A stretch of 64,000 bases of DNA. It comes from an uncultured Acidimicrobiaceae bacterium. Lineage in GTDB: Bacteria > Actinomycetota > Acidimicrobiia > Spongiisociales > UBA5794. Shown piece by piece: positions 11,899-44,486 of this stretch. Location: the NCBI GenBank assembly GCA_947259365.1, contig CAMYMC010000021.1, positions 135,816 through 199,815 on the forward strand. The letters are read 5' to 3'. The position numbers and the translations under genes were made by a program. Positions within the stretch are counted from its first letter, which is position 1; the number at the start of each line of letters is the position of its first letter. The notes beneath the pieces were generated by a model. That model was not told where the DNA came from and did not search any database. It was given only the letters and a program-made list of their open reading frames with translations.

Positions 11899-12387
11899 GT
11901 GCTCACCCCCGGAACCGTGGCACCCGACTTCGACGTCGCCGACCAGTGGGGCGGCCGCGTCCGACTCCGCGACCTTCGCGGCACCTGGGTGGTGCTGTGG
12001 TGGTACCCGAAAGCCGCCACGTCGGGATGAACGGATGAAGGGCAGGGGTTCCGTGACCGAATCCCGGACTTCGACGGGCTCGGCGTGGTGATCCTCGGCA
12101 TCTCCTACGACACCCCCGATGACAACCGCGCCTGGGCTGAGAAGCACCGGTTCCCGTTCCAGCTCCTCTCCGACGAGGATCGCTCCGTGGCCGGGGCCTA
12201 CGGCGCAGTCCGCCACCCCGACGATGCCTCCCCCGGGCGCCCCCGGAGGATCACCTACGTCATCGACCCGGCGGGTGTGATCCGGCTGTCGTATCGCGTG
12301 GCCTCAGCCGACATCGCCGGCCACGCCGACCGGGTGCTCGCCGACGTGGAGGTACGCATCGACGCACCGCGCCGCGGCGGGGTCTGA
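11899..12387 (+). CDS. Bcp/PrxQ-type peroxiredoxin with in-frame TGA at the peroxidatic Cys position (probable selenoprotein)
   Basis: Track ORFs 11458..12030 and 12085..12387 are in the same frame with no other stop between them. Read-through gives VLTPGTVAPDFDVADQWGGRVRLRDLRGTWVVLWWYPKAATSG[TGA]TDEGQGFRDRIPDFDGLGVVILGISYDTPDDNRAWAEKHRFPF. That is the PxxxTxxC motif with TGA (12028-12030) in place of C. The GTG start at 11899 gives a typical ~160-aa length. Confidence 0.7.
12045..12065 (+). promoter_or_regulatory. SECIS-like hairpin downstream of the peroxiredoxin TGA
   Basis: GGGGUUC-CGUGACC-GAAUCCC has a 7-bp stem with one G-U pair. It starts 15 nt after the UGA and has GU in the apical loop. 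Confidence 0.45.
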
Positions 12388-12470
12388 GCGCTTCTTCGAG
12401 CACATTGGCGGCAACCGAGCCGTCGTTCGGGTGGCGCAGCCCGCAACGCAACGACCGGTAGCCTCGGCCA

Positions 12471-13676
12471 ATGCGCAGAGCCCTCGCAGCGCTCCTGGTC
12501 ACGATCACGGCGTGCTCGCAAGGCGCACCGGCGCCGACCACCAGTTCGGTGTCGTCGACCCTCCCGACGCCGGTGTCCACGCCGCCCGCCACCACGTCGC
12601 CGCCCGCGACGTCCACCACAACCGGGCATTCTGCTCCTCCCGTATATCTCACGTGGGTGTCGGGGCGCCTCCCCGACGGGTTCGGGGATCTCGTCGCCTC
12701 GGTTGCCGGCGTCGAGCGCGTCACCGTCGTCTCGGCCGGGATCGGCGACCTCGTCGCATCGAGGAACCCAGCCGGTATCCCGATGGACGGCCCTCCGGAC
12801 GGCTTCGCGTTCCCGCTCGAGGTCTTCGCCGTCGACGGTGACGGCTACGCCTCGTTCCTCGGTCCCGACGAGGCGGGCATCATCGCCTCGCTCGGTCCCC
12901 ATGAGGTCGTGCTCGGTGCGACCTCGGCAGCGGTCCGCGGGCTCGGCGTCGATGGGGTACTCGGCTTCCGCACCGGCGACGGCGCGACGGTCGAGGTGAG
13001 GGTGGCGGCCGTGCTCCCCGATGTGACAGTCGGTGGCGCCGAGGTCATGACGGTCGCCGGCGACGCCATCGCCCCGGGCAGGCTCACCCCACGCTACGCC
13101 CTCGTCGCCGGTGACGTCACGAAGGGGGTGTTGCGGGCAGGCCTCGCTTCCGGCCTCGGCGAGGACAGCCCGTTCCAGGTCCTCGCCGAGGGAGAGACGC
13201 CCATCTTCCGTCACGCCGACGCGGTCCGGCCGCAGAGCTGGATCAAGCTCCGGTTCGGGGAGTTCGCCTATCGCGACGGCGAGGGCCGGCGAATCGAGAT
13301 CGACCCGGCGTGGGTGGAGGACAACATCGTGGAGGTCGTCGTTCCACTGCTCGGCCGCTTCAAGTGCCACCGGGACTTCGCCGAGCTTCTCGACGGCGTC
13401 ATGCGCTCCCTCGTCGAGATCGGGGCCACCGACGTCGTCGACGGCGACGCGTTCTTCGGGTGCTGGAACCCCAGGTGGATCAGCGACAGACGCGGCCTCA
13501 GCCGCCACGCGTGGGGCGTCGCCGCCGACATCAACCTGGGGAACGCGACGGATGGCGGGCCCGGGTCCCCGGTGAATCCGCTGCTGCTCGAGGCGATGGA
13601 GGAGGCGGGAACGACCTCGGGGCACACCTGGGTGGAGCCGGACGCGGGTCACTTCGAGTGGTATCGCGACCGTTAG
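12471..13676 (+). CDS. lipoprotein with C-terminal M15-family (VanY/D-Ala-D-Ala carboxypeptidase-like) metallopeptidase domain
   Basis: Lipobox LLVTITAC is followed by a Ser/Thr/Pro linker. SRHAWGVAAD (HxxxxxxD) and DAGHFEW are the zinc-ligand motifs. Confidence 0.75.
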   Translation: MRRALAALLVTITACSQGAPAPTTSSVSSTLPTPVSTPPATTSPPATSTTTGHSAPPVYLTWVSGRLPDGFGDLVASVAGVERVTVVSAGIGDLVASRNPAGIPMDGPPDGFAFPLEVFAVDGDGYASFLGPDEAGIIASLGPHEVVLGATSAAVRGLGVDGVLGFRTGDGATVEVRVAAVLPDVTVGGAEVMTVAGDAIAPGRLTPRYALVAGDVTKGVLRAGLASGLGEDSPFQVLAEGETPIFRHADAVRPQSWIKLRFGEFAYRDGEGRRIEIDPAWVEDNIVEVVVPLLGRFKCHRDFAELLDGVMRSLVEIGATDVVDGDAFFGCWNPRWISDRRGLSRHAWGVAADINLGNATDGGPGSPVNPLLLEAMEEAGTTSGHTWVEPDAGHFEWYRDR

Positions 13677-13703
13677 GACGCCAGACGTGTCAAGGACGGC
13701 GGC

Positions 13704-14135
13704 TCAGCGCCGGGTGCGGACGAGCTGGAGCCCGCCGGCGGCCATGAGCCCGGCTCCGGCGTAGAACCCGAGCCGGAACAGCCACGTGATGTCGTTCCTG
13801 CTGTACGCCCTGAAGTCCTCGAAGAACGCCTGAAGGCCGAGGAGGCCCACAGCGATGGCGGCGACGGCGACGATCCACGGGTACAACGAGTGCCATGGGG
13901 CCTGGGCCGCCTTGAAATAGCTGTAGACCCCGACGAGCGTCCCGACGGCGAGGAGCCAACCGACCTCGGCGACCTGGTACTCGTTGAAGAGCACGTCGCC
14001 GACGAGCCAGGAGAGCCCGGCGACGAGGGCGGCGCCGACGACGACGAGCCGCTCGGCCGTGGTCAGCTGTTCGAAGACCTCTCCGACCGGATTTGGCTCC
14101 TCTTCGGGCCGCGGCTGCGGTGTCGGGTCGGTCAT
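13704..14135 (-). CDS. hypothetical membrane protein
   Basis: 143 aa with four hydrophobic segments, in a good GC3 frame. Confidence 0.65.
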   Translation of the reverse strand: MTDPTPQPRPEEEPNPVGEVFEQLTTAERLVVVGAALVAGLSWLVGDVLFNEYQVAEVGWLLAVGTLVGVYSYFKAAQAPWHSLYPWIVAVAAIAVGLLGLQAFFEDFRAYSRNDITWLFRLGFYAGAGLMAAGGLQLVRTRR

Positions 14136-14173
14136 GGCCCCTCCCTTCGTGCGTGCGCGACTCTACGGCACAG

Positions 14174-14965
14174 TCACCCCTGCCCGAACACGACGACCTC
14201 TGTGTTGGAGCAGGCCGACGATCCCAGATCGCAGACGACGTAGGTATATGTCGCATTGCCCGTCGTCCCGATCGCGTCGGTATGCGTGAAGCCGGCGGCG
14301 CTGGCGATCGACGCTCCGTCGCGCAGAATGTCGACCGCCGTGGACCCGGTCCATGTGAGATCGACCGTGTGCTTGCCCTGAACCTTGTAGCCGGTTGCGC
14401 TCAGGGTCATCGTCGGCGGCGGTGTCGTCGTGGTCGTCGTCGTGGTCGTCGTCGTGGTGGGTGGCACGGTCGTGGTCGTGGTGGGTGGCACGGTGGTGGT
14501 CGTGGTCGTGGTGGGTGGCACGGTGGTGGTCGTGGTCGTGGTGGGTGGCACGGTCGTGGTCGTGGTGGTCGTGGTGGTGGTGGTGGTCGTGGTGGTCGTG
14601 GCGATCGTTGTCGTGGTGGTCGTCGTGGCTCCGGGCACGGTTGTCGTCGGTGAGGGTGGCGCCGTCGTCGACGCAGGGAGGGTGGACGACGTCGAAGCGC
14701 CGGGCAGTGTCGTGGTTGCACCCGTTGTGGCCGGGGTCGTCGCCGGGTCGGTCGCGGCCGCCGCTTGCGTTGTCGACGCCGCAGCCGCGTCTGTGGTCGG
14801 CAACGCCTCCCCGACCGGGCCGGCCACGACGGTGCCGTCGGCGAAGTCGGTATCGGGGAGTCCGCTCGTGTCGGGCACCGCGGCGCCGCACGCCGCAGCA
14901 ACGATGGCGAGAGCGGCGAGCGTCAGCCACCCCTGCCTGTTCGCATTGCTCCATCTGCTCAGCAC
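14174..14965 (-). CDS. Thr/Pro-rich secreted lipoprotein with small C-terminal Ig-like domain
   Basis: Lipobox AIVAAAC, then a long poly-Thr tract with VPPTTTTTTT repeats. The C-terminal YKVQGKHTVDLTWTGSTAVDILRDG...YTYVVCDLGSSACSN resembles the C-terminal domains of secreted proteases. GTG start. Confidence 0.7.
   Translation of the reverse strand: MLSRWSNANRQGWLTLAALAIVAAACGAAVPDTSGLPDTDFADGTVVAGPVGEALPTTDAAAASTTQAAAATDPATTPATTGATTTLPGASTSSTLPASTTAPPSPTTTVPGATTTTTTTIATTTTTTTTTTTTTTTTVPPTTTTTTTVPPTTTTTTTVPPTTTTTVPPTTTTTTTTTTTTPPPTMTLSATGYKVQGKHTVDLTWTGSTAVDILRDGASIASAAGFTHTDAIGTTGNATYTYVVCDLGSSACSNTEVVVFGQG
14454..14567. repeat. tandem 24-30 bp repeats encoding the VPPT(n) units
   Basis: The unit GTGGTGGGTGGCACGGT(G/C)GTGGTC(GTGGTC) occurs about 4 times. 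Units 14478-14507 and 14508-14537 are identical. Confidence 0.8.
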
Positions 14966-15107
14966 CGGTCCAACTCCCCTCGCGCCCCCGGCGCGCCCCC
15001 TTCCAGTGCTCGCGGCCGCCGGCTTCGAAGAGCCGCCGGCGCAGCATCACGAAAGGGCACGTCCCCGGACGTGCCCTCCCGTCGTCAAGCCGGTTGCCAG
15101 TGTACCG

Positions 15108-15332
15108 TCACCCCTCGCCGCCGCCAGCGGCAGGTGGCTGGGCCGGCGTGAGTCGCTTCCTGCCGAACGGCGCCCACCAGGCGAGCGCGATACCGCCCAC
15201 GGCGCCGATGATGATGAGCGGGAGCAGCAGGTTGTTGTTGGACGGCACGATGCCGCCGAGCCACAGATCCAGCCACACGAACAGGCCGAGAAAGGCTCCC
15301 GCGACGAAGCCGAGTATGGGTCGTCCTCTCAC
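15108..15332 (-). CDS. small hypothetical membrane protein
   Basis: 74 aa with two hydrophobic helices. Its GTG start overlaps the upstream stop (GTGA), which suggests translational coupling. Confidence 0.5.
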   Translation of the reverse strand: MRGRPILGFVAGAFLGLFVWLDLWLGGIVPSNNNLLLPLIIIGAVGGIALAWWAPFGRKRLTPAQPPAAGGGEG

Positions 15333-15877
15333 AACTGCCTCGCTCTCATCGCCACTCCGACGCCGACGATCGACACCACGGTGAGCACGATGGTCCCGAT
15401 GAGCAGCGGACTCGTGCCTTCGAAGTGGAGCGTCACCGACCCGCTACACCACACCGAGCCGCTCTCGGAGTGGGAGCCGACGACGACGATGTCGTAGCCG
15501 GAGAGGATCGACGGCAGATCGTACGTGTAGGTGCCACGGCTGGACGTGCCGGTTGCGTCCTCGTCGAACCAGTCACCGGCGGTGATGTTCGGCACCGGGA
15601 ACGGGAAGTCGACGGCGACCGACCCGCTGATCTCGCGCCCTTCCGGGGGCGGCGTCACACCGTTGACGGCGCCCTCCCATGAGACGCTCGCCTTCAGCGG
15701 GATCTCGGGGAACGGCTGCAGCTGGGCGGCGTCGATGAACGGGCCGGGCGTGAAATCGCCCGTCCCCTCGCAGTTCCCCGGCGGGTTGATCGTCGCCGCC
15801 GCCGGCCCGGCCGTGAGCGCCGCCAGCATGAATAAGGCCCCGCCGAGGCTGGTCCACCTGGCGAATTGCCGTCGCAC
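15329..15877 (-). CDS. hypothetical secreted protein with C-terminal membrane anchor
   Basis: GTG start with GGAGGGGG 6 nt upstream. Signal-like N-terminus VRRQFARWTSLGGALFMLAALTAGPAAA and C-terminal TM LLIGTIVLTVVSIVGVGVA. Confidence 0.6.
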   Translation of the reverse strand: MRRQFARWTSLGGALFMLAALTAGPAAATINPPGNCEGTGDFTPGPFIDAAQLQPFPEIPLKASVSWEGAVNGVTPPPEGREISGSVAVDFPFPVPNITAGDWFDEDATGTSSRGTYTYDLPSILSGYDIVVVGSHSESGSVWCSGSVTLHFEGTSPLLIGTIVLTVVSIVGVGVAMRARQL

Positions 15878-15911
15878 GTTCCACCCCCTCCGGTCGCGTC
15901 GGGGCCTCACC

Positions 15912-17341
15912 CTACCGATCCGGCTCCGTGCTGCGCGGGACCGCATCCCCCACGCTGCCCCTGCGGCGGAGGATGGAGCTGACCTCGTCGATGTCTCCGG
16001 GAGCCGTTTGCGCCGCCCTGGCGTACATCCAGCCGGTCGGGAGGAAGAAGACCTGGAAGCCTGCGAGTCCGACCGCCCAGTTGAGCGGTGGCGGGAAGGC
16101 CCGCTCGATGCTGCCGGCGAGCGCACCGACGAGTCCGTTGCCCGAGGCCCTGCCGACCCCGTTGGCGAGATTGCCGAGCCCGAACACCGTTCCCCTGTGC
16201 TCGGGGAGGTTGACGTCGGAGATGAGGGCGAACCAGTTGGGTGAGTCGGCGCTCGTGAACGCCAGCGCCAGCAGCGACATGAAGAACGCCGCCGTCACCC
16301 ACCCGTTCGTGACGATGCTGCCGAGCACCTCGGGCACGAGCGTCGCCGTGCTCCCCCCGGGTGTGACCTCGAGGCCCCGCAGCGGGATGAAGAAGAACGC
16401 GAGGAAGAAGGGGATCGCGCCGAGGATGCCGACGGAGGACACGATGGCGCGGCCGGACTTCGTCCGCTGCTGCACCCTGTCCCCGATCCAGCCGGCGAGG
16501 ATCGAGAAGAGCCCGCCGAGCTGGAAGATCGCGCCGAAGAGCCCGCCGACCTTCGTCGCGGTCGCGGTGTCGTAGCCCTCGGCGACGATCTTCTCCTTGT
16601 AGATCCGTAGGCGAACTGGGCGCTGAGGCCCTGGAGGATGAGCCACATGTTCGTCCTGCGGCGAAGCAGGCCGGGGATCTGGCGGTGGTCGATGCGGTAC
16701 TCGTAATCGGCGCCCGCCGCCCGCAGCTCCTCCAGCTCGGGTTCGCGGTACCCCCGCGGCGCCTCGTAGGTGAGCAGGTAGAGGACGGCGAAGACGGCGC
16801 CGAGCGCAGCCATGACGAGGAGCGGGCGGCGGAAGTCCCCGGCCCCGAGCTGGCTGGCGATCAGACCGCCCGCGAGTCCTCCGATGCCCTGGGAGAGGCC
16901 CCAGAAGCTCATCGCGAGACCACGGCGCGCCGGCGATACGAAGTCGCTCACGACCGAGAAGCCCACCGAGGCGATGGAGCCGAGGCCGATCGCCGTCAGG
17001 CTTTGGAACATGAACAGGGCGCCGAAGCTGCCGGCGCGAGAGCTGAGGAAGACTCCGACCGCCCAGATGGCCGTACCGATGAACAGGAGACGCTTGCGGC
17101 TGGAGCGATCGCCCCAGTAGCCCCATGCCACGGCAGTCACCGCGGTGACGAGCAGCACGGTGCCGGTCATGAATCCGATCGCCTGGTCGGAGGTGCCGAG
17201 TGACTCCGCCACCGGCTTGACCATCGACGGGAACAGCGCGAGCGCGCTGTTGTCGAGCGAAGCGAGGACGATGAAGACGACGATGGTGAAGATCACGTGG
17301 CCCCGTGAGCCCCACCACGGCGGCCTCCGCTGTTGCGTCAT
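15912..17341 (-). pseudogene. MFS transporter with an apparent 1-nt frameshift
   Basis: The N-terminal half (MTQQRRPPWW...NMWLILQGLSAQFAYG) is in the 16295..17764 frame. The C-terminal half (IYKEKIVAEGYDTATATKVGGLFG...) is in the 15912..19163 frame. The junction is at about 16603-16607. This could be a sequencing error. Confidence 0.6.
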
Positions 17342-17417
17342 GGCCGTGGAGTCTCCAGACAACTTCGCCGCGCCGCAAGTAGGGGCGGTAGCCTCCGCCC
17401 CCGATGCGGGAGCCGAC

Positions 17418-19250
17418 ATGACCGAAGGCCCGTCGCCACCGGGCAAGCCGGCGTGGACGCCGGACGAGGCCGACATCGCCTCTGCGAACGTGACCGAGGT
17501 GGCCGCCCGCCTCGACCTCGCCGGGATCGAGGAGGTCCACCGATGGTCCGTCGAGCACCGCTCCGAGTTCTGGCGGCTCGTCGTGGAACGCCTCGGCGTC
17601 GTGTTCCGCCGCCCGCCGGAGCAGGTCCTCGGTGATGAGGACTCGGCGGAGCGCCCGCGATGGCTCGACGGCGCGAAGCTGAACATCGCCGAGAGCTGTT
17701 TTCGCCACGACCCGGGACGCGTCGCTGTTGTCGCTCGCCGGGGGGGCGGTGTCGAGCGGGTCACCTACGGTGACCTGGTGACGAGCGTGAGCCGGTTCGC
17801 CGCCGGCTTCCGCGAAGCAGGACTCACACCGGGCCGACCGGTGGGGATCGCGATGCCGATGACCCTCGAATCGGTCGTCGCCTACCTCGGCATCGTCGCC
17901 GCCGGGGGCGTCGTCGTCTCCATTGCCGACTCGTTCGCCCCGGACGAGATCGCCACTCGGCTCCGCATCGCCGGAGCGGACACCGTGGTGACCCAGGATC
18001 GGATGGTGCGCGGCGGCCGGGAGCTGCCGATGTACGAGAAGATCGTCGCCGCCGGCGCGACCAAGGCGATCGTCGTCGACACGGGCGCTGCCATCCCCCT
18101 GCGCCCCGGCGACGTGTCCTGGGAGCGGTTTCTCCAACCGGACCCCGGGCTCGTCCTCCACGTCGGCGACGCTCACGATCACACCAACATCCTCTTCTCG
18201 TCCGGCACGACGGGTGAGCCCAAGGCCATTCCCTGGACCCAGGTGACGCCGCTCAAGGCGGGGATGGACGCCCATTTCCACCACGACGTCCACCCCGACG
18301 ACGTGCTCGCCTGGCCCACCAACCTCGGGTGGATGATGGGGCCATGGCTCATCTACGCCGCTCTGCTCAACGGGGCGAGCCTCGCCATCCACGACGACCA
18401 ACCGACCGACGCCGCATTCGGGAGGTTCGTCGAGGAGGCCGGGGTGACGATGCTGGGCGTCGTGCCGAGCCTCGTCGCCACGTGGCGATCGACCCGGTGT
18501 CTCGACGGGATCGACTGGTCCGCGGTCAGGCGGTTCAGCTCGACCGGTGAGGCCTCGAATCCGGACGACATGCGATGGCTCATGTCCTTCTCGGGTCCGA
18601 AACCGGTCCTCGAGTACATCGGCGGCACCGAGATCGGCGGCGGCTACCTGTGCGGATCGATGGTCCAGCCGGCGATCCCGTCGATGTTCTCGATCCCGGC
18701 ACTGGGCCTGGACGTTCGTATCCTCGACGACGAGGGGAAACCGGCGACGAGCGGCGAGCTGTTCGTCGTACCGCCATCGATGGGGCTCTCCGAGGAGCTC
18801 CTCAACCGTGACCATCACCAGGTCTACTTCGACGGGACGCCGGATTCGGACGTCGTCCTCCGCCGCCACGGGGACCACATCGAACGCTTCGAGGGCGGCT
18901 ACTACCGGGCGATGGGCCGCATCGACGACACGATGAACCTCGGCGGCATCAAGGTCAGCTCCGCCGAGCTGGAGCGAAGCGTCTCCGAGGTGGCGGGCAT
19001 CGCCGAGGTCGCCGCGGTCGCAGTCCCACCTCCCGGCGGCGGCCCCAGTCTCCTCGTCGTGTACGCCGTGGCGGACGCGGGGGCGGCGCCCGAGCCGGCC
19101 GTCGTCAAGGAGGAGATGCAGCGCGCCATCCGCACCCGTCTCAACCCGCTGTTCAAGATCCACGGCGTCGTCATGGTGGACTCGCTCCCGCGCACCGCCT
19201 CACAGAAGGTGATGCGCAGGCTCCTCCGGTCGAGCTACACCGCAGGCTGA
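17418..19250 (+). CDS. AMP-binding enzyme (acyl/acetyl-CoA synthetase-like ligase)
   Basis: 610 aa from the ATG (MTEGPSPPGK). It has FSSGTTGEPK, YGGTE-like EYIGGTEIGG, GRIDDTMNLGGIKV and a C-terminal PRTASQKVMRR. Confidence 0.85.
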   Translation: MTEGPSPPGKPAWTPDEADIASANVTEVAARLDLAGIEEVHRWSVEHRSEFWRLVVERLGVVFRRPPEQVLGDEDSAERPRWLDGAKLNIAESCFRHDPGRVAVVARRGGGVERVTYGDLVTSVSRFAAGFREAGLTPGRPVGIAMPMTLESVVAYLGIVAAGGVVVSIADSFAPDEIATRLRIAGADTVVTQDRMVRGGRELPMYEKIVAAGATKAIVVDTGAAIPLRPGDVSWERFLQPDPGLVLHVGDAHDHTNILFSSGTTGEPKAIPWTQVTPLKAGMDAHFHHDVHPDDVLAWPTNLGWMMGPWLIYAALLNGASLAIHDDQPTDAAFGRFVEEAGVTMLGVVPSLVATWRSTRCLDGIDWSAVRRFSSTGEASNPDDMRWLMSFSGPKPVLEYIGGTEIGGGYLCGSMVQPAIPSMFSIPALGLDVRILDDEGKPATSGELFVVPPSMGLSEELLNRDHHQVYFDGTPDSDVVLRRHGDHIERFEGGYYRAMGRIDDTMNLGGIKVSSAELERSVSEVAGIAEVAAVAVPPPGGGPSLLVVYAVADAGAAPEPAVVKEEMQRAIRTRLNPLFKIHGVVMVDSLPRTASQKVMRRLLRSSYTAG

Positions 19251-19495
19251 GGGCCGTATCCACCGGTGATGGGCAACGTCCGCCCGAACGGGGAAGGAAC
19301 GGCAGGAACGAGCGCCGTGCCGTCGTGACGCCTCACGCTCGACCGCCGTCGGGATCGGACTCGTCGGCTGAATCGCCATCGTCGGCCGAGCCGTCCCCAC
19401 GTCGCCGCCTTCGGCGGCCGGTTGGATTCAGGAAACGCGGGCCCCCGGCCACATCGGGGGCGTGTGAGGTCGGGGGCGTGGGAGGTTGCGCCGTG

Positions 19496-20092
19496 TCAGC
19501 CCGGGTCGCGTTGTCGCCCCGCGGCATCGAGCCAGTCCTCCGGTTCGACGCCGAGCCCGTCGGCGATCCGGTTGATGTAGTTGAAGTAGGCGCAGACCTG
19601 GGTCGCGTCGTGGATGGCACGGTCGTCCCATCCCGCGGCCCGCAACGCGGCGACGTCGCCCTCAGCCATGTCTCCCGGTGCCAGCGAGAGCTTCTCTGTG
19701 TACTCGAGCAGGGCCACCGTCTTCGCATCGAGGCCGGCCGTTCTCCATCCCGTCGCGACCCGGTCGGCGAGCGCCCGGGCGTGGTCGTCGTCGAGGTCGA
19801 GGTCGGCGCCGATCTCCGACCGGAGATCGTGCAGGTGGGCCTGGACTCAGTACTCGCACTCGTTGGCGACGGAGGTGACGACGGCGATGAGCTCGCGCTG
19901 GGAGCGGCTCAACGGTGACTCGCCGAACATGAGCGAGCCGTAGAGCCGCATCGAGTCGCGCATCGCTTCGCCGTTCTGGCTCATGATCGCCACGATGTTC
20001 CAGATGCGTCCGGCGCGCCGCATCGCGGCCTCGTACTCGCGTCGCGTCGCACCGGTCGCGGCGTCCGGCGGGATCTCCTCGATGTACGGCAT
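19496..20092 (-). CDS. AhpD/carboxymuconolactone-decarboxylase-family peroxidase-related protein with CxxU (in-frame TGA; probable selenoprotein)
   Basis: Track ORFs 19847..20092 and 19496..19717 are in the same frame, with 43 open codons between them. Read-through gives ...LSRSQRELIAVVTSVANECEY[TGA]VQAHLHDLR...LLEYTEKLSLAPGDM...CAYFNYINRIADGLGV. This matches the N-x-C-x-Y-C-x-x-x-H motif with TGA (19847-19849) at the second Cys. Confidence 0.7.
19810..19829 (-). promoter_or_regulatory. SECIS-like hairpin downstream of the AhpD-like TGA
   Basis: On the minus strand: C-GAUCUCC-GGUC-GGAGAUC-G, an 8-bp perfect stem with a GGUC tetraloop. It starts 18-19 nt after the UGA. GGUC is also the apical loop I recall for the E. 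coli fdhF SECIS. Confidence 0.5.
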
Positions 20093-20132
20093 CGTCTCGG
20101 GACACTACCGCCCGGCTCTCTAGTCTTGGCCG

Positions 20133-21239
20133 ATGGCCGTCGTCTCCGTTCTCGTGTTCACCGCCGGGCTGTGGTTGGTGGGTTGGACGATCCTCTCCGC
20201 CGTCCGCACCGTCATCTTGCCCCGCAACGCTCAGTCGATCATCACCCGGGCCGTGTTCCGCAGCGTCCGGGTCCCGTTCCGGTGGCTCGCCGGTGAGCGG
20301 CGCACGTTCGAGAGCCGCGACCGGATCCTCGCCCTCTTCGCCCCCGTGGGTCTCGTGGCCCTGCCCGGGGTGTGGCTCACCATCGTCACCGCCGGGTACA
20401 CGCTGATGTTCTTCGCGCTCGGCGGCCGCAGCCTGGGAGAGGCGTTCCATCTCAGCGGCTCATCGGTCACGACGCTCGGCTTCGCCCCGGCCACGACGCT
20501 CGTCGAGAGGGCACTGGCCTTCACCGAAGCCGGCTGGGGACTCTTCCTCGTCGCCCTCATGATCACCTACCTCCCCTCCCTCTACTCGGCCTTCGCCCGG
20601 CGCGAGGCCCTCGTCGCCCTCCTCGAGGTTCGCGCCGGGAAGCCCCCCTCGGCGACCGAGTTCATCGAGCGGCACCACCGCATCGGGTGGCTCGACGAGC
20701 TGCGGGAGACGTGGCTCGCCTGGGAGCTGTGGTTCGCCGAAGTGGAGGAGTCGCACTCGAGCTTCCCCGCGCTCGTCTTCTTCCGCTCCCCAGATCCCGG
20801 CCGTCACTGGCTCACCGCCGCGGGAACGGTGCTCGACTCCGCCTCGGTGTTCATGTCGTCGGTGGAGGGCGTCGAGCGGGGTCCGCCCGGCGTCTGCGTG
20901 CGCTCCGGCTACCTCGCGCTGCGCAAGATCGCCGACTTCTTCGGCATCGCCTTCGATCCCGATCCCGCCCCGACCGATCCGATCTCGATCACCCGGGACG
21001 AGTTCGAATCTGCCCTCGATCATCTCGGCGGCGTCGGCGTGCAGCTCACCCCGGATCGGGACCAGGCGTGGCGCGACTTCGCCGGATGGCGGGTCAACTA
21101 CGACACCGTGCTCCTCCAGCTCGCCGAGGTCACACAGGCGCCCTACGCGCCGTGGACGGCCGACCGCTCAGCGGTGAGCCGGGAGCGGCCGAGGATGCGG
21201 CGTTTTGGACGCCGCGCCGGAGCCGGGCGGGAGGGATGA
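20133..21239 (+). CDS. hypothetical polytopic membrane protein with soluble C-terminal domain
   Basis: 368 aa with N-terminal TM helices and a pore-loop-like SGSSVTTLGFAP segment. No family could be assigned with confidence. Confidence 0.65.
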   Translation: MAVVSVLVFTAGLWLVGWTILSAVRTVILPRNAQSIITRAVFRSVRVPFRWLAGERRTFESRDRILALFAPVGLVALPGVWLTIVTAGYTLMFFALGGRSLGEAFHLSGSSVTTLGFAPATTLVERALAFTEAGWGLFLVALMITYLPSLYSAFARREALVALLEVRAGKPPSATEFIERHHRIGWLDELRETWLAWELWFAEVEESHSSFPALVFFRSPDPGRHWLTAAGTVLDSASVFMSSVEGVERGPPGVCVRSGYLALRKIADFFGIAFDPDPAPTDPISITRDEFESALDHLGGVGVQLTPDRDQAWRDFAGWRVNYDTVLLQLAEVTQAPYAPWTADRSAVSRERPRMRRFGRRAGAGREG

Positions 21240-21293
21240 GCGGACGCCCGGAGCGCCCGTAGACTCACGCCGAGGCAATCTGAAGGAGGTCTG

Positions 21294-22184
21294 GTGCAGT
21301 CCGATCCCGATCTGCATCGGTCGCTCCGCGAGCGGGTGGTCGGCGAGCACGGGGTGATCATGGTGGTGGGCGCCGCCAACACCGGGAAGACGACGCTGGC
21401 GCGTCTCCTGTTGACGGACGCGCTCGAGGCGGGCCGGTCGGTCGCCTTCGTCGACGCAGACGTCGGGATCTCGGCGGTCGGCCCTCCGGCATGTGTCGGC
21501 CTGCGCTGGATCGACTCGCCCGATGCCCTCTCCTCCCTCGAACACGCCGACGAGCTGCGCTTCGTCGGTTCGACGCAGCCCCAGGGCGTGGTCCTGCCCC
21601 ACGTCGTCGCAACTGCCGATCTCGTCGCGGTCGCGGCGCGCCGGGCCGACTTCGTCGTTCTCGACACGACCGGCGTCGTCTCGGGCGTCGTCGGCCAGAC
21701 GCTGAAGTACCACCTCACCGAGTTGTGCAAGCCCGCGCTCGTCATCGCCATGCAGCGGGGCGGCGAGTTGGAGCCGACGATCGGCATGCTGCGCCGGTTC
21801 CTCGGGACGCGGGTCGCCAAGGCTCAGCCCCACGACTCGCTCACTCCCTCGAGCCCGCTCGAGCAGCGAGCAGCACGGGTCAAGGGCTTCGCGGCCGCCC
21901 TCGCCTCGCCCCTGCAGCGCTGGCGGGTGCAGCTGCGGGTGTTCGCCCCCACCCTTCCGGAGGGGTTCGACCTCGACAAGCTCGAGGGCATGCTCGTCGG
22001 TGTGCAGGACGGCGAGGGGCGCTGCCTCGGGCTCGGTGCGCTCGAGTTCACCGACGGGGTGCTCCGGGTGGCAACTCGTCACGGCGATCAGATGAAGGGC
22101 TTGCGCCTCGGATCCATGCGGATCGACCTCGACACGTTCGAGACGGTCCCCATCCGGCTGCGCGAGCTCATCTTCGGGACGTAG
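21294..22184 (+). CDS. Clp1/Grc3-like P-loop polynucleotide kinase family protein
   Basis: GTG start preceded by GAAGGAGG. It has the Walker A MVVGAANTGKTTLARLL, then FVDADVGISAVGPP, VVLDTTGVVSG and LKYHLTELCKPALVIAMQRGGELEP, as in the Clp1 kinase domain. Confidence 0.65.
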   Translation: MQSDPDLHRSLRERVVGEHGVIMVVGAANTGKTTLARLLLTDALEAGRSVAFVDADVGISAVGPPACVGLRWIDSPDALSSLEHADELRFVGSTQPQGVVLPHVVATADLVAVAARRADFVVLDTTGVVSGVVGQTLKYHLTELCKPALVIAMQRGGELEPTIGMLRRFLGTRVAKAQPHDSLTPSSPLEQRAARVKGFAAALASPLQRWRVQLRVFAPTLPEGFDLDKLEGMLVGVQDGEGRCLGLGALEFTDGVLRVATRHGDQMKGLRLGSMRIDLDTFETVPIRLRELIFGT

Positions 22185-22207
22185 CCGGCGAGGCCGCCGT
22201 CAGTCCG

Positions 22208-22759
22208 TCAGTCTCCGGGCGCCGGGGCCGGGGCCTCGCGGTCGGGAGACATGACGGCGAAGCCGGCGTCGAGCGAGCGGACCGTCAGGATCCTTCGCCC
22301 CGGCTGGATGGCGGGACGGGGATCCGTCACCTCGCGTCCCAGCGCCCGCCAGCGCAGGGCGACGACCTCGAGCGGCGTGTCGGTGACGAGGGCGACGCCG
22401 TACAGGGACGGCGCTCTGACCGGTGATTCGATGACCTCGAGCAGGGGCCCCACGCGGAAGAACGCGGTGGGCCTTCCCTTCACCTCGATGCGGAGCCGGG
22501 GCGATGCCCCCGCCTCACCGATGACCTCGGTGGCCGTCTCGATGTCTGGGACGAGGAGCACGACGTGGTCGACGTCCCAACCGGGAGCCGGCTCACCGCG
22601 CGGCACGTCGCAGTCGGGAACGCCGAGGCCCGGCGGTGCCGGCTCCCATGCCCAGGCCGGGTCGCCGGTGGTGAGGACGGTCGAGGGGGTCTGGAGGGGG
22701 TTGGGAAGCTCGAACTCGTCCCAGAGAACCGGGAGGCGCAGCGCGGTGATCGCAGGCAC
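22208..22759 (-). CDS. glyoxalase/VOC-like domain protein
   Basis: The conserved part is VDHVVLLVPDIETATEVIGE...FFRVGPLLEVIESP. Start set at an in-frame GTG (VPAITALRLPVLWDEF) because codons upstream of it have poor GC3. The start is uncertain. Confidence 0.5.
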   Translation of the reverse strand: MPAITALRLPVLWDEFELPNPLQTPSTVLTTGDPAWAWEPAPPGLGVPDCDVPRGEPAPGWDVDHVVLLVPDIETATEVIGEAGASPRLRIEVKGRPTAFFRVGPLLEVIESPVRAPSLYGVALVTDTPLEVVALRWRALGREVTDPRPAIQPGRRILTVRSLDAGFAVMSPDREAPAPAPGD

Positions 22760-23099
22760 CCGGGGGAGTATCGACTGCCCGCTTCGAGGTGTCGAACCCG
22801 GCGTCGACCCCGGACGCGGCCGACGCGCCGAAGCCCGAGGAACCTTCGGCAGTTGCTCCCCGCACTTCCCCGAACGAGGTCTGGCTGCCTCAGCACCTTG
22901 GGCTTCGACGGTTCCGACCCTACGGAGCCGGCACGGAGGTTTCAACCCCGCCGCGCAAGGGTTTTCGGGCCGTCTCAGGGGTCTGCGCGGTGATGTTATC
23001 CATGTCAGTTGACCTCAACCACCCATCGGGATCGCCGGTTCTCCACATGTCCACACCAATCCACAGGGGGTTGTGCACAACGGGGTGTCGACAACTTTC

Positions 23100-30646: not shown

Positions 30647-30668
30647 ACCAACGTCGTAGCGTGAGACC

Positions 30669-31388
30669 ATGCCGGAGACGTCGAAGACCGTGCATCACGC
30701 CCTCGACGTCCTGGGCCACCTGCGGGCCGAGGGCCCGGCGCCTGCGGCATCGATCGCAGCCCGTCTCGGTCTCTCCCGGACCGTCGTGGCGCGCTTGCTC
30801 GCAACGTTGGCGGCACACGATCTCGTGCGTCGGACCGACGGCGGGTTCGCGGTAGGGCTCGGCATCCTCGAGCTCGCGGCCGGTGTCGAGCCCCGGCTTC
30901 GCGACGCGGCCAGGCCCGTCCTCACCGATCTCGCCGACCGCTTCCAGGAGACGGCCGTGCTCGCGGTGCGACAAGGAACGTACGCCGTCGCGGTCGACGG
31001 CGTGGTGCCGGGCGGGCGCGTCGTGAGGGTTCACTACCAGCCGGGCACCCGCCATCTGCTCACAGAGGCCGCACACGGGCGGTGCATGCTCGCATCGCTG
31101 GCTCCGGATGACCCTGCAGCGGTCGCCGCCGACGGTCTCGACGCCGTCCGCCGCGCCGGCTACGCCACGTCACACGACGAGCTCGAGCCGGGCGTCTCGG
31201 GGCTGGCGGCACCCGTGATCGACGGACGCGGCGTCGTTGCCGCCGTCGGCGTGGTGGCACCGACGGGGCGCATGCCCGGCGAGGCGGAGCTGGCAGACGC
31301 CGTGTGCGCCGCAGCCGCTCGCATCACCGCGGCGCTTCGCGGCGGGAACCGGCCGGAGACGGCAGTCGCATCGTCGTCGAGGACCTGA
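30669..31388 (+). CDS. IclR-family transcriptional regulator (HmgR-like by context)
   Basis: 239 aa with the N-terminal wHTH ALDVLGHLRAEGPAPAASIAARLGLSRTVVARLLATL and a C-terminal effector domain (HDELEPGVSGLAAPV). It sits directly upstream of hmgA. Confidence 0.8.
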   Translation: MPETSKTVHHALDVLGHLRAEGPAPAASIAARLGLSRTVVARLLATLAAHDLVRRTDGGFAVGLGILELAAGVEPRLRDAARPVLTDLADRFQETAVLAVRQGTYAVAVDGVVPGGRVVRVHYQPGTRHLLTEAAHGRCMLASLAPDDPAAVAADGLDAVRRAGYATSHDELEPGVSGLAAPVIDGRGVVAAVGVVAPTGRMPGEAELADAVCAAAARITAALRGGNRPETAVASSSRT

Positions 31389-31406
31389 GACGGAAGGAGG
31401 AGAGCC

Positions 31407-32567
31407 GTGCCGTACTACCGCAGCGTCGGGGAGATCCCGGCCAAGCGTCACACCCGCTTCTACAAGCCCGACGGTGGTCTGTTCGCCGAGGAGCTCATGG
31501 GGGAGGAAGGGTTCAGCTTCGACTCGGCGCTCCTCTACCACATCAACCCTCCAACGCGCCTCGTCTCCGTGGATCCCGTCGCCACCGAGCCCCAGGAGAC
31601 GACGCCGAACCATCCCCTTCGCCCCCGGCACTTCCGCACGCACGAGCTGAAATCGGGCGGTGATCTCGTCACCGGGCGCCATCTCCTCCTGGCCAACGAC
31701 GACGTACGGATCTCGTACGTCGCTGCCGGCCAGACGAGCGACCTGACGAAGAACGCCATGGGTGACGAGCTGGTGTTCATCGAGGAAGGATCCGGCACCC
31801 TCGACACCGTCTTCGGATCGCTCGAGTTCGCCAAGGGCGACCACGTCGTCGTCCCGGCTTCGACGATCCACAGATGGGTGACCGGGGCGGAGACGGTGCG
31901 GGCCCTCGTCGTCGAGACGCGAGCGCACATCGGCCCGCCCCGGCGGTATCTGTCCCGCAACGGCCAGTTCCTCGAGCACGCCCCCTACTGCGAGCGAGAC
32001 ATCCGCGGTCCCTCCGAGCCCCTCATCGTCGAGGGGTCGGACGTCGAGGTGTTCGTGAGGCATCGCAACGGCACGACGAGGTACACGTACGCCCGCCACC
32101 CGTTCGACGTCGTCGGCTGGGATGGCTGCCTCTACCCGTGGGCGTTCTCGATCTACGACTTCGAGCCGATCACCGGGAGGATCCATCAGCCGCCGCCGGT
32201 GCATCAGACCTTCGAGGCGCCCAACCTCGTCGTCTGTGCGTTCGTGCCCCGCAAGTTCGACTACCACCCGCAGGCGATCCCGGCCCCGTACAACCACTCG
32301 AACGTCGACAGCGACGAGGTGCTCTTCTACGTCGACGGGAACTTCATGAGCCGTAAGGGGAGCGGGATCGAAGCCGGCTCCGTCTCCCTTCATCCCGGAG
32401 GGCACACGCACGGTCCCCAGCCCGGTTCGGTCGAAGCGAGCCTCGACGTCGAAGCCACCGAAGAGTACGCGGTCATGGTCGACACGTTCCGCCCCCTCGA
32501 CCTCGGCCCCGGCGGCCGCGACAGCGAGGATGACAAGTACGCGTGGTCGTGGCTGGAAGGGCGATGA
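31407..32567 (+). CDS. hmgA: homogentisate 1,2-dioxygenase
   Basis: 386 aa. GTG start preceded by GGAAGGAGGAG. Sequence includes YYRSVGEIPAKRHT, GRIHQPPPVHQTF, NHSNVDSDEVLFY and SLHPGGHTHGP. Confidence 0.88.
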   Translation: MPYYRSVGEIPAKRHTRFYKPDGGLFAEELMGEEGFSFDSALLYHINPPTRLVSVDPVATEPQETTPNHPLRPRHFRTHELKSGGDLVTGRHLLLANDDVRISYVAAGQTSDLTKNAMGDELVFIEEGSGTLDTVFGSLEFAKGDHVVVPASTIHRWVTGAETVRALVVETRAHIGPPRRYLSRNGQFLEHAPYCERDIRGPSEPLIVEGSDVEVFVRHRNGTTRYTYARHPFDVVGWDGCLYPWAFSIYDFEPITGRIHQPPPVHQTFEAPNLVVCAFVPRKFDYHPQAIPAPYNHSNVDSDEVLFYVDGNFMSRKGSGIEAGSVSLHPGGHTHGPQPGSVEASLDVEATEEYAVMVDTFRPLDLGPGGRDSEDDKYAWSWLEGR

Positions 32568-32631
32568 CGGCGACCGGGCCGGTTTCCGGCATCCGACACC
32601 GGGCGGGCGCCCGCCGACCCCCGGTGGCGCC

Positions 32632-33876
32632 GTGACCGGGCGCACGGTCGACCCCACCCTGCGCTCGTGGGTTCCTGTCCCGGCGGGATCCGACTTCCCC
32701 ATCCAGAACCTCCCGTTCGGGGTCTTCGAAGACGAGCGCGGCCGCCGGGTCGGGGTCGCGATCGGCGAACACGTCCTCGACCTGCGCGCGGTCCACGACG
32801 CGGGCATCATCCGCCTCGAGGCCGACGAGGCCGCCGCCGTCTCGCTGAACCCGATGCTCGGGTCCCGGGCCCGACTCGGCGCGATCCGGCACCGCGCCTC
32901 GGAGCTGCTCACCGAGGGCAACGAGGAGCTCTTCGGAATCCCCGGCCGCGGAATCGTGCCCCTGGAGCAGGTGACGCTCCAATTGCCCCTCGAGGTCCCC
33001 GACTACGTGGACTTCTACTCGTCGCTGCACCACGCCACCAACCTGGGACGTATGTTCCGTCCCGACGCCGAGCCGCTGCCGCCGAACTGGAGGCACCTGC
33101 CGGTCGGCTACCACGGGCGGTCGGCCACCATCGTCCTCAGCAGCACCGACGTCCGCCGCCCGTGGGGCCAGCACACGCCGCCCGCCGGCGACCCGGTGTT
33201 CGGCCCCTCCACCCGGCTCGATTTCGAGCTCGAGGTCGGCTTCGTCACCTGCGGCGACGTCCCCGCCGGCCGGCCGATTCCCGTCGACCGGGCGGAAGAG
33301 CACATCGCCGGTCTCGTGCTGGTCAACGACTGGTCGGCTCGCGACATCCAGGCGTGGGAGTACGTCCCGCTCGGGCCGTTCCTCGGCAAGAGCTTCGCCA
33401 CGACGATCTCGCCGTGGCTCGTGACCCTCGACGCCCTCGCTCCGTACCGGGTGCCGGCACCCCCCCAGCACCCGGAGCCCCTCCCCCACCTGCGCGCCGA
33501 CCCGAACCTCGGCCTCGACCTCGAGCTCGAGGTCGACCTCAACGCGACGACGATCGCGCGCACGACCTTCCGCGACATGTACTGGACGATGTCCCAGCAG
33601 CTCGCCCATGTGTCGAGCAATGGCGCCGTGGTGCGAGCGGGCGACCTCTATGCGTCGGGCACGGTGTCGGGCCCAGACCAGGGCACGTTCGGGAGCCTCA
33701 TCGAGCTCGCCGAGGACGGTGCACGTCCTCTCCGGCTCGGGGACGGTTCGGAGCGGGCGTTTCTCGAGGACGGCGACACGGTGACGATGCGGGGGTTCTG
33801 TGACGACGGGCGGGTGAGGATCGGCTTCGGAGCGAACGTCGGGACGATCGTCCCGGCTCCCGACGAGAGAGGATGA
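32632..33876 (+). CDS. fahA: fumarylacetoacetase
   Basis: Sequence includes SWVPVPAGSDFPIQNLPFGVF, VDFYSS, GYHGRS and NDWSARDIQAWEYVPLGPF. The GTG start was chosen to give the usual short N-terminus. The track ORF starts earlier, at 32530. Confidence 0.85.
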   Translation: MTGRTVDPTLRSWVPVPAGSDFPIQNLPFGVFEDERGRRVGVAIGEHVLDLRAVHDAGIIRLEADEAAAVSLNPMLGSRARLGAIRHRASELLTEGNEELFGIPGRGIVPLEQVTLQLPLEVPDYVDFYSSLHHATNLGRMFRPDAEPLPPNWRHLPVGYHGRSATIVLSSTDVRRPWGQHTPPAGDPVFGPSTRLDFELEVGFVTCGDVPAGRPIPVDRAEEHIAGLVLVNDWSARDIQAWEYVPLGPFLGKSFATTISPWLVTLDALAPYRVPAPPQHPEPLPHLRADPNLGLDLELEVDLNATTIARTTFRDMYWTMSQQLAHVSSNGAVVRAGDLYASGTVSGPDQGTFGSLIELAEDGARPLRLGDGSERAFLEDGDTVTMRGFCDDGRVRIGFGANVGTIVPAPDERG

Positions 33877-34988
33877 CGACGGTGAGCGAGGCCTTCGAGG
33901 CACACAGGAACGACTTCCCGATCCACGGGTTCCACCACATCGAGTTCTGGGTCGGCAACGCGTACCAGACCGCCCACTATTACCGCGCCATCCACGGCTA
34001 CCGCATCGTCGGGTACCGGGGCCCCGAGACCGGCGTCCGGGACACGGCGTCCTACGCCCTCAGCCAGGGCGACGTGCGGCTCATCGTCACGGGCGCCATG
34101 GCCCCGGATCATCCTCTCACCGCGCATCTGGGAGCGCACGGTCCAGGTGTGCGCGACGTCGCGGTCCACGTCCCGGACGCAGATCAGGCCTTCGACGTGG
34201 CGCTCGAGCGCGGAGCAGAGGGCGTCGCCAAGCCGGCCGTGGTCGAGGGCGACCGCGGCATCTGGAAGACGGCGGCCATCGCCGCCTACGGCGACACGGT
34301 CCACAGCCTCGTCGAGGACGAAGCGGGAACGTGGCCGCCTCCCGATTTTCGGCCGCGCCAAGACTCGATCGCCGAGCCGATCGGGCTGGCGAACATCGAC
34401 CACGTCGTTGCCAACGTCGAGCTGGGGGCGATGGACCGCTGGGTCGAGTTCTACGAGCGGGTGTTCGGGTTCGTCCTGTTGCGCCACTTCGACGACGAGG
34501 CCATCTCCACCGAGTACTCGGCGCTCATGTCGAAGGTCGTGTGGGACGGCTCCGGGGTCATCCGCCTGCCGATCAACGAGCCGGCGACCGGCCGCCGCCG
34601 CAGCCAGATCGAGGAATACCTCGAGTTCTACCGGGGACCCGGCGTCCAGCACATCGCCATCGCCACCGACGATCTCGTCTCGACGGTCGCCCGGGCGCGA
34701 CGGCGCGGAATGGGTCTCATGCGGGTGCCCGACACCTACTACGACGATATCGCCGACAGAGTCCCCGATCTCGACGCCGACGTCGACACGTTGCGAAGGC
34801 TCAACATCCTCGTCGACCGGGACGAGGGCGGGCATCTCCTCCAGATCTTCACGAGGATGATGCAGGACCGGCCGACGTTCTTCTACGAGTTCATCGAGCG
34901 GCGCGGCGCCGTCGGCTTCGGCGAGGGCAACTTCAAGGCGCTCTTCGAGGCGATCGAGCGCGACCAGATGGAGCGGGGCAACCTCTGA
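33873..34988 (+). CDS. hppD: 4-hydroxyphenylpyruvate dioxygenase
   Basis: 371 aa with FHHIEFWVGNA, IDHVVANVELG, GVQHIAIATDD, LLQIFT and FFEFIERRG-like FYEFIERRGAVGFGEGNFKALFEAIE. ATGA overlap with fahA. Confidence 0.92.
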   Translation: MTTVSEAFEAHRNDFPIHGFHHIEFWVGNAYQTAHYYRAIHGYRIVGYRGPETGVRDTASYALSQGDVRLIVTGAMAPDHPLTAHLGAHGPGVRDVAVHVPDADQAFDVALERGAEGVAKPAVVEGDRGIWKTAAIAAYGDTVHSLVEDEAGTWPPPDFRPRQDSIAEPIGLANIDHVVANVELGAMDRWVEFYERVFGFVLLRHFDDEAISTEYSALMSKVVWDGSGVIRLPINEPATGRRRSQIEEYLEFYRGPGVQHIAIATDDLVSTVARARRRGMGLMRVPDTYYDDIADRVPDLDADVDTLRRLNILVDRDEGGHLLQIFTRMMQDRPTFFYEFIERRGAVGFGEGNFKALFEAIERDQMERGNL

Positions 34989-43671: not shown

Positions 43672-44274
43672 CTACCTCCCCACCTTCGTGAGGGGGCGTC
43701 CGTAGGGCGAGACCGGCTCCGGCTTCGGGGTCGTGACCCGCTTGCCCGCCCGGACCTGCCACTGGTACATGGCGAAGACGATGAGTCCGGTGATGACGAG
43801 GTGGTAGATGCCGGACACCGCGTCCTTGACGGCGGCGTACGAGATGGACACCTCGTTGTTGAGCATGAGCCACTTCGGGAGCGTGATCGCGATCCTCTGC
43901 GGCGTCCACTCCCACACCGATTGCGTCAGCGTGAGCCACTCGTTGGGCACGAGTCCGTAGAGGATCATCATCAGGGTGGTGAAGAGAGTGGCGCCGAGCG
44001 AGGCCCGGGCCCACGTCATCTCCCGCTGGTAGAGGAAGGCCACGGCGACGCCCGCGATGAGGACGAGACCGCCGGCGAGGGAGATGACCTGGCCGATGAC
44101 GACCCACTGCCATCCCCGGGGTATGGCCGGGTAGATCTCCGCACCGACATCGTTGAGTTCTGACAAGCCGGTGAAGTGGGCGAACAGCGCCCCGGCGATC
44201 GTCACGAAGCCACCGGCGAGGATGGCGGCGATCCCGATCCTGCGGTACTTGTTCAGCTCGCGGATGTCGGTCAT
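43672..44274 (-). CDS. hypothetical membrane protein, first gene of the bc-type operon
   Basis: About 200 aa from the ATG (MTDIRELNKYRR), with 5-6 TM helices. Its stop lies 3 nt before the ferredoxin start. Confidence 0.6.
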   Translation of the reverse strand: MTDIRELNKYRRIGIAAILAGGFVTIAGALFAHFTGLSELNDVGAEIYPAIPRGWQWVVIGQVISLAGGLVLIAGVAVAFLYQREMTWARASLGATLFTTLMMILYGLVPNEWLTLTQSVWEWTPQRIAITLPKWLMLNNEVSISYAAVKDAVSGIYHLVITGLIVFAMYQWQVRAGKRVTTPKPEPVSPYGRPLTKVGR

Positions 44275-44486
44275 TTCGGCGGCATCGCTCCGTGGCGTCG
44301 GGACCGTGTCGGGTCGGCTCGCGACCGTACCGCTCGGCATTCTACGCACGGCTCACGGCGACACGAACTCGGCCCCGGACGGCACGGAGATGGATTCACC
44401 GCGCCGGCGCGGCGAAGCTAGGCTGCCCTCCGCCGCGCCACAGGACTGTGGGACGAACCAGTGCGTACGGGGAGGAGCCACGGGCG

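Follow-up and report, generated by a model that had tools for sequence, protein, structure and literature searches.

In this study, we analyzed two genes in a 64-kb stretch of contig CAMYMC010000021.1 (assembly GCA_947259365.1), referred to in the following as the window, that are each interrupted by a single in-frame TGA codon. One of them encodes a peroxiredoxin (Prx) and the other an AhpD-like protein. Both interrupted open reading frames (ORFs) are very probably intact selenoprotein genes, in which UGA would be decoded as selenocysteine (Sec). This interpretation builds on directly observed features, namely the positions of the two UGA codons, their conservation in homologues, covarying hairpins behind them, purifying selection on the regions downstream and the use of UGA as a normal terminator elsewhere in the window. 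An earlier reading of the same DNA, made without database searches (the sequence-only reading), had likewise taken both TGA codons for Sec, and this proposal now receives strong comparative support from the conserved codons, the covariation in the hairpins and the ratios of non-synonymous to synonymous substitution rates (dN/dS).

Two redox genes with an in-frame UGA

The peroxiredoxin frame reads VLTPGTVAPDFDV...WWYPKAATSG*TDEGQGFRDRIPDF...RRGGV, with the asterisk marking its single in-frame TGA, and the one-frame translation around the stop is WWYPKAATSG*TDEGQGFRDR (Table 1). For the family searches with both read-through products, Cys was substituted for the stop. The Pfam family AhpC-TSA (PF00578) spans residues 5-129 of the peroxiredoxin with an E-value of 1.5e-35 and runs across the UGA at residue 44. 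The top NCBIfam matches are PrxQ/BCP models, and the nearest solved structures are BCP proteins. In the alignment to these structures, the TGA takes the position of the peroxidatic Cys of Xanthomonas BCP (YPKDSTPG-C-TTEG). Since Cys is completely absent from the peroxiredoxin, Sec44 would be its sole redox-active residue and an external reductant would be required, as expected for a “1-Sec” BCP. Translation probably starts at a GTG codon at position 11899, as deduced from homologues that begin with M-L-x-P-G just before the APDF motif.

The AhpD-like frame reads MPYIEEIP...VTSVANECEY*VQAHLHDLRSEIG...QRDPG and also contains one in-frame TGA, in the context VANECEY*VQAHLHDLR (one-frame translation). 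The model TIGR01926 covers residues 10-186 of the read-through protein and reaches 132.3 bits at a cut-off of 81.8, and the protein in addition matches Pfam CMD (E = 7.1e-12). Its nearest solved structures are the AhpD structure 6K40 and several peroxidase-related proteins. In 6K40, the residue matching the TGA is the second Cys of the CxxC motif (N-E-C-E-Y-U versus N-R-C-V-Y-C). The Cys residues of the protein are Cys79, which lies in the CxxU motif, and Cys167. The claim of the sequence-only reading that both stops are TGA codons at a catalytic or redox-active Cys and are followed by a hairpin is thus borne out by the alignments with Xanthomonas BCP and 6K40 and by the predicted folds.

Table 1. 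Positions of the predicted selenoprotein genes, their UGA codons and the candidate hairpins in the window.
Feature	Position	Strand	Characteristics	Basis
Predicted selenoprotein peroxiredoxin gene, BCP/PrxQ type	11899..12387	+	162 aa, Sec44	family profiles, structure alignment
Predicted UGA Sec codon, peroxidatic position	12028..12030	+	P-K-A-A-T-S-G-U (PxxxTxxU)	alignment, homologue codons
Candidate bacterial SECIS-type hairpin, peroxiredoxin	12036..12073	+		fold and covariation
Predicted AhpD-like selenoprotein gene, “peroxidase-related enzyme” (TIGR01926; Pfam CMD)	19496..20092	-	198 aa, Sec82, motif C79-E-Y-U82	
Predicted UGA Sec codon in place of the second Cys of AhpD CxxC (CxxU)	19849-19847	-		alignment with 6K40, homologue codons
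Candidate bacterial SECIS-type hairpin, AhpD-like	19829-19810	-	CGAUCUCC, loop GGUC, GGAGAUCG	

SECIS, selenocysteine insertion sequence.

Apart from these two genes, window-wide scans of the 64 kb revealed no coding frame that is interrupted by a single stop, in agreement with the sequence-only reading, and the remaining pairs of ORFs in the same frame proved to be neighboring genes or antisense frames. As the observation that would speak for a poor assembly or general gene decay, that reading had named numerous random in-frame TGA codons; within the window, internal TGA codons are confined to the two redox genes. TGA terminates 35 of the 41 window genes. Therefore, the genetic code is not reassigned and the recoding is site-specific. 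A second scan for Sec codons near a protein terminus gave a single match, which lies opposite the squalene/phytoene synthase gene and was interpreted as an antisense frame.

Conservation of the UGA codons and the downstream hairpins

The distribution of the AhpD-like gene was studied by a scan in which each GTDB species was represented by one genome, and the best 80 loci (47-76% identity) were retained. These loci come from at least six phyla and their hosts include Acidimicrobiia, Anaerolineae and other Chloroflexota, Acidobacteriota, Gemmatimonadota, Latescibacterota and Candidatus Actinomarina, amongst others. The Sec codon is TGA in all 80 loci, with the frame open on both sides and conserved beyond the codon, and TGA is also present at this codon in two further contigs (L001 and L002). 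The two Candidatus Actinomarina genomes carrying the gene are represented by L078 and L083, and the identity to the GTDB species genomes reaches 76% at most. Forms with Cys at the Sec position also exist among the homologues (P0016 and P0064). Many of the AhpD-like homologues in the databases comprise only about 110-125 aa of the C-terminal half and start one codon past the TGA. Such C-terminal stubs, of which dozens were found, are the usual footprint of unannotated selenoprotein genes. The window genes are affected in the same way, since gene calling splits the AhpD-like gene into stubs of 81 and 112 aa, and the public protein set contains the peroxiredoxin as two fragments (P0158 and P0140). 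The suspicion raised in the sequence-only reading that standard annotation under-calls selenoproteins has thereby been substantiated.

Among 74 metagenomic relatives of the peroxiredoxin with a recognizable motif, TGA stands at the codon in 45 sequences and a Cys codon (TGC or TGT) in 28, and TGA predominates among the closest relatives. Five contigs reached via database fragments (L084-L088) also carry TGA at this codon. The two genes do not represent two independent events in this genome, as assumed in the sequence-only reading, but are members of two old and widespread Sec-containing subfamilies.

Some database entries display Trp at the Sec position of the AhpD-like protein. The homologue P0030, known from at least ten contigs of several samples, has a real TGG at this codon (L169:10001-10582, L170 and L171) and keeps the GACCUCC...GAGGUC hairpin. 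This suggests a recent replacement of Sec by Trp (TGA to TGG), unlike the usual exchange between Sec and Cys. For P0001 (L172:86-652), the DNA shows TGA, and the source pipeline had applied to this short contig a code with UGA as a sense codon. Full-length database forms with “W” can therefore be hidden selenoproteins.

A direct comparison with a related genome is provided by L001 (GCA_012974925.1), which is syntenic with positions 11980-22803 of the window at about 88% nucleotide identity. Such a comparison had been suggested in the sequence-only reading, and L001 keeps both TGA codons as well as both hairpins. Past the stop, the AhpD-like genes of window and L001 differ by 22 synonymous and 18 non-synonymous changes with a dN/dS of 0.24, and the value for the peroxiredoxin is 0.21. 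No indels, frameshifts or further stops were found behind either TGA in this comparison. Purifying selection past the stops indicates that the downstream regions are translated and under selection.

Upstream of the peroxiredoxin (around position 11900 of the window), the segment L001:9585-9697 no longer aligns with the window. On the strand of the peroxiredoxin, this contig end contains an open frame, translated by eye (WHIYFGPADTT...VEPMDTPV), that might be glyoxalase-like. The relative could have undergone a rearrangement or deletion at this point, or the contig end could be chimeric.

The two hairpins are located 14-17 nt downstream of the UGA codons. In the peroxiredoxin, the predicted core consists of GGGGUUC (12045-12051), the loop CGUGACC (12052-12058) and GAAUCCC (12059-12065), and an outer helix is formed between 12036-12040 and 12069-12073. 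The core helix has 7 bp and the apical loop begins 21 nt past the UGA. In the AhpD-like gene, the helix begins 17 nt past the UGA. Bacterial SECIS elements are described to have a small apical loop containing G (PMC1088965), and the loops CGUGACC and GGUC of the window hairpins are likewise small and contain G.

The AhpD-like helix has the 7-bp consensus GACCUCC...GGAGGUC, which is present in all 81 aligned sequences with 88% of the cells paired. At the pair 36-49, CG occurs in 70, UA in 7 and UG in 4 of these sequences, and none is unpaired. Furthermore, the third position of a Leu codon in the stem is C in 79 of the 81 sequences despite very different G+C contents, including the low-GC Actinomarina. 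This frozen synonymous site points to a constraint at the RNA level on top of the protein constraint.

For the peroxiredoxin, the existence of Sec and Cys forms allowed a comparison within the family: 77% of the cells in the hairpin columns are paired in Sec forms versus 31% in Cys forms. The stem occurs in compensatory variants such as CGGAUUC/GAAUCCG, AGCCUG/CAGGCU, AAACUC/GAGUUU and GUAUUC/GAAUAC. Changes on both sides of the stem were counted in 33 cells versus 9.9 +/- 3.6 in shuffles, and none of 500 shuffles reached 33. In the control with a displaced register, the score is also high at a slide of -1, because some sequences use a register shifted by one base. The resulting consensus hairpins are GACCUCC-N4-6-GGAGGUC for the AhpD-like family and GGRUUC-CGKGAY(C)-GAAYCC for the peroxiredoxin.

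Selenocysteine insertion and alternative explanations

According to the established bacterial pathway, the hairpin past each UGA would act as a bacterial SECIS element and recruit SelB-GTP together with Sec-tRNA(Sec), and Sec would be inserted at the UGA instead of termination. From the chemistry known for these families, peroxide would oxidize Sec44 of the peroxiredoxin to the selenenic acid, from which an external thiol reductant would regenerate it, and the AhpD-like oxidoreductase would work through a Cys79/Sec82 selenenyl-sulfide couple (C79-x-x-U82). The genes selA, selB, selC and selD of the host would be located outside the window.

Several observations weigh against this interpretation. 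No tRNA gene, including one for tRNA-Sec, was found in the 64-kb window, its scanned ORFs contain no SelA, SelB or SelD domain, and tblastn with E. coli SelA and SelD queries gave no match in the window, which confirms the absence of selA, selB, selC and selD noted in the sequence-only reading. These searches covered the 64-kb window out of a source contig of 205,640 nt, and the Sec machinery of the host is inferred. Concerning the hairpins, the fold energies taken alone are unexceptional, with z-scores of +1.2 (peroxiredoxin) and -1.2 (AhpD-like) in a GC-rich sequence of about 70%. Both hairpins overlap conserved peptides (HDLRxEV and GFRDR), and part of their conservation is therefore driven by the protein sequence. 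The coverage of bacterial SECIS elements in Rfam is poor, and searches at gathering and permissive thresholds yielded no match to a SECIS model and only chance miRNA-like matches. The single-sequence fold energies, being not significant, were dropped as evidence and replaced by the covariation tests, so that the significance of both hairpins derives from the comparative data.

The host itself can be assigned by sequence comparison to an uncultured bacterium of the class Acidimicrobiia (Actinomycetota). All named NuoD matches (73-79% identity) belong to metagenome-assembled genomes (MAGs) of Acidimicrobiia or Actinomycetota, and the closest AhpD-like loci likewise stem from Acidimicrobiia MAGs. 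The sequence-only reading had correctly pointed to an actinobacterial host. Ilumatobacter coccineus, I. nonamiensis and Candidatus Microthrix parvicella are all members of the Acidimicrobiia. The Sec trait is documented in Actinobacteria (PMC5029168), and Peng et al. 2016 list SelD, SelA and SelB for I. coccineus (15 selenoproteins), I. nonamiensis (10) and Candidatus M. parvicella (7), and Acidimicrobium ferrooxidans without these three proteins (PMC5029168, Tables S1/S2). In Actinomarina, selA, selB, selC and selD are present in all 84 complete genomes, with about five selenoproteins per genome (bioRxiv 10.64898/2026.04.03.716425). Because of these reports, the presence of the Sec machinery in the host genome can safely be assumed.

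The flanks of the homologue loci were searched as well. ARAGORN detected no tRNA-Sec in any of the homologue loci retrieved, and tblastn with the E. coli SelD and SelA queries in 1.4 Mb of these loci gave no match in the Acidimicrobiia loci. The single sel match in the 1.4 Mb is an ORF of an Anaerolinea MAG (L080:60-950) with 39% identity to E. coli SelD; this ORF is found some 6 kb upstream of the AhpD-like Sec gene.

Alternatively, the two genes might be pseudogenes created by nonsense mutation or relics left after a recent loss of the Sec trait, from which at most truncated peptides would be made. The lack of visible Sec machinery in the window would fit such a scenario, as would the neighboring gene for a major facilitator superfamily (MFS) transporter, which is really disrupted. 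The defect in the latter is a 22-bp deletion and hence another type of lesion, and decaying genes would hardly be expected to share the position of the stop codon with all 80 AhpD-like loci and 45 of 74 Prx relatives from several phyla, to evolve at a dN/dS of 0.21-0.24 without indels or further stops downstream, or to carry hairpins that covary. Decay of both genes is therefore very unlikely. Sequencing or assembly errors that turned TGC or TGT into TGA are a still weaker explanation with practically negligible probability: the assembly is of the metagenome type and one gene, the MFS transporter, has a possible assembly defect, but L001 and L002, which were assembled independently from other samples, contain the same TGA codons, as do more than 120 further loci.

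Decoding of UGA without selenium, either by readthrough with Trp or Cys via near-cognate tRNAs or by a code with UGA as a sense codon, would fit Trp at the Sec position in the database entries P0001, P0002 and P0030 and the one homologue with a true TGG codon (L169). The “W” of P0001 is a TGA translated by a pipeline with another code, and since one case is a pipeline artefact and the other a real TGG, these entries were rejected as evidence for UGA being read as Trp. A global reassignment is contradicted by the regular use of TGA as terminator in the window. Moreover, the in-frame UGA codons are restricted to positions of a redox-active Cys, and behind each of them lies a SECIS-type hairpin, which is missing in the Cys forms of the peroxiredoxin. 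This combination is the signature of Sec and not of leaky readthrough, and recoding without selenium is accordingly as improbable as gene decay.

Intact selenoprotein genes are thus the favored interpretation, and a further question is whether their products could act together. In Mycobacterium tuberculosis, the CxxC protein AhpD reduces a peroxiredoxin in the AhpC/AhpD system. Like this system, the window contains a peroxiredoxin and an AhpD-fold protein of the CxxC type in one neighborhood, and the two might form a dedicated selenium-based relay for peroxide reduction in this Acidimicrobiia lineage. In such a relay, the Prx selenenic acid would be recycled by the AhpD-like protein via a selenenyl-sulfide or diselenide intermediate, which, if true, would represent an all-selenium analogue of the mycobacterial AhpC/AhpD pair. 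Unlike the latter, the window genes do not form an operon, as they are 7.5 kb apart on opposite strands with at least six unrelated genes in between. None of the 80 other loci has this peroxiredoxin within 10 kb of the AhpD-like gene and the linkage is found in L001 only. A conserved functional pairing was rejected on the ground that the neighborhood is common only to the window and L001. In addition, the AhpD-like protein scores only 19.3 bits against the model for true AhpD (TIGR00777) with its cut-off of 192. Altogether, a relay of this kind appears improbable.

Known selenoproteins and further features of the window

A current table of selenoprotein families in prokaryotes lists both Prx (PF00578, TxxU) and AhpD-like (TIGR01926, CxxU) (PMC13188914). 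Evidence for a Sec-containing peroxiredoxin first came from Eubacterium acidaminophilum (Sohling et al. 2001, as cited in PMC13188914), and the AhpD-like family (COG2128 / TIGR01926, CxxU) was introduced as a selenoprotein family in 2005 from Sargasso Sea data (PMC1088965). In the Global Ocean Sampling (GOS) survey, “AhpD-like 1” with 299 and Prx with 253 sequences were among the most abundant selenoprotein families (PMC2398784).

The window peroxiredoxin resembles the known Sec peroxiredoxins in its AhpC/TSA fold, the predicted Sec at the peroxidatic PxxxTxxU position and the SECIS-type hairpin just downstream, and Cys-form paralogues are widespread in the known family and likewise found among the relatives of the window gene. 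It differs in belonging to the BCP/PrxQ branch, with only 50.9 bits in the PrxU equivalog model NF040737 (cut-off 270), and in the complete lack of Cys from which the “1-Sec” mode with an external reductant is predicted. For the AhpD-like protein, with TIGR01926 above cut-off, the CxxU motif and the SECIS-type placement of the hairpin, nothing essential differs from the known AhpD-like selenoproteins, and it represents an additional member from uncultured Acidimicrobiia. The window genome shares the class and the trait of several redox selenoproteins with the published selenoproteomes of Acidimicrobiia; it differs from Ilumatobacter, Microthrix and Actinomarina in representing a separate uncultured lineage.

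Both window genes are new members of families that have been described as selenoproteins since 2001-2005. As the Sec trait is already documented in the class, with 7-15 selenoproteins in Ilumatobacter and Microthrix, the novelty implied by the sequence-only reading is absent and the knowledge of selenocysteine biology is not changed by these genes. Their main value lies in the correction of annotations, since gene callers split both genes and the same error affects hundreds of public homologues. As a consequence, the repertoire for peroxide defence in uncultured Acidimicrobiia and their dependence on selenium are both under-reported. Furthermore, the two family-specific SECIS consensus hairpins could serve as seeds for covariance models, which are lacking in Rfam.

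The G+C content is about 70% throughout the window. The sequence-only reading had also assumed a mycothiol-type actinobacterium; general Pfam scans of the window ORFs, without a dedicated search, detected no mycothiol genes (mshA-D, mca, mycoredoxin). The MFS transporter gene (15912-17600, minus strand) is frameshifted near position 16603 by a 22-bp deletion, in which TCGCTCATCTGGGTGCCGCTCC is missing in comparison with the intact 469-aa orthologue of L001. A frameshift rather than a stop had been recognized in this gene from the sequence alone, and either the gene has truly become a pseudogene or the deletion is a defect of the assembly.

Between the two redox genes, an ORF at 14174-14965 (minus strand) encodes 263 aa with long Thr and Pro runs (TTTTTTTTTTVPPTTTTT repeated) and resembles a low-complexity protein that is secreted or located at the cell surface. 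The strand opposite to it contains long spurious ORFs rich in Val and Trp. A cluster for tyrosine/homogentisate catabolism is located at 30660-34985 and includes an IclR regulator, a fumarylacetoacetase and an HPPD-like dioxygenase; a 392-aa ORF (31389-32564) without Pfam match at 1e-5 lies at the spot expected for homogentisate dioxygenase. Finally, an ORF of 750 aa at 44175-46424 (plus strand) combines a subunit I domain of a haem-copper oxidase (COX1) with a C-terminal FixO / cytochrome c domain and adjoins genes for cytochrome b and cytochrome c.

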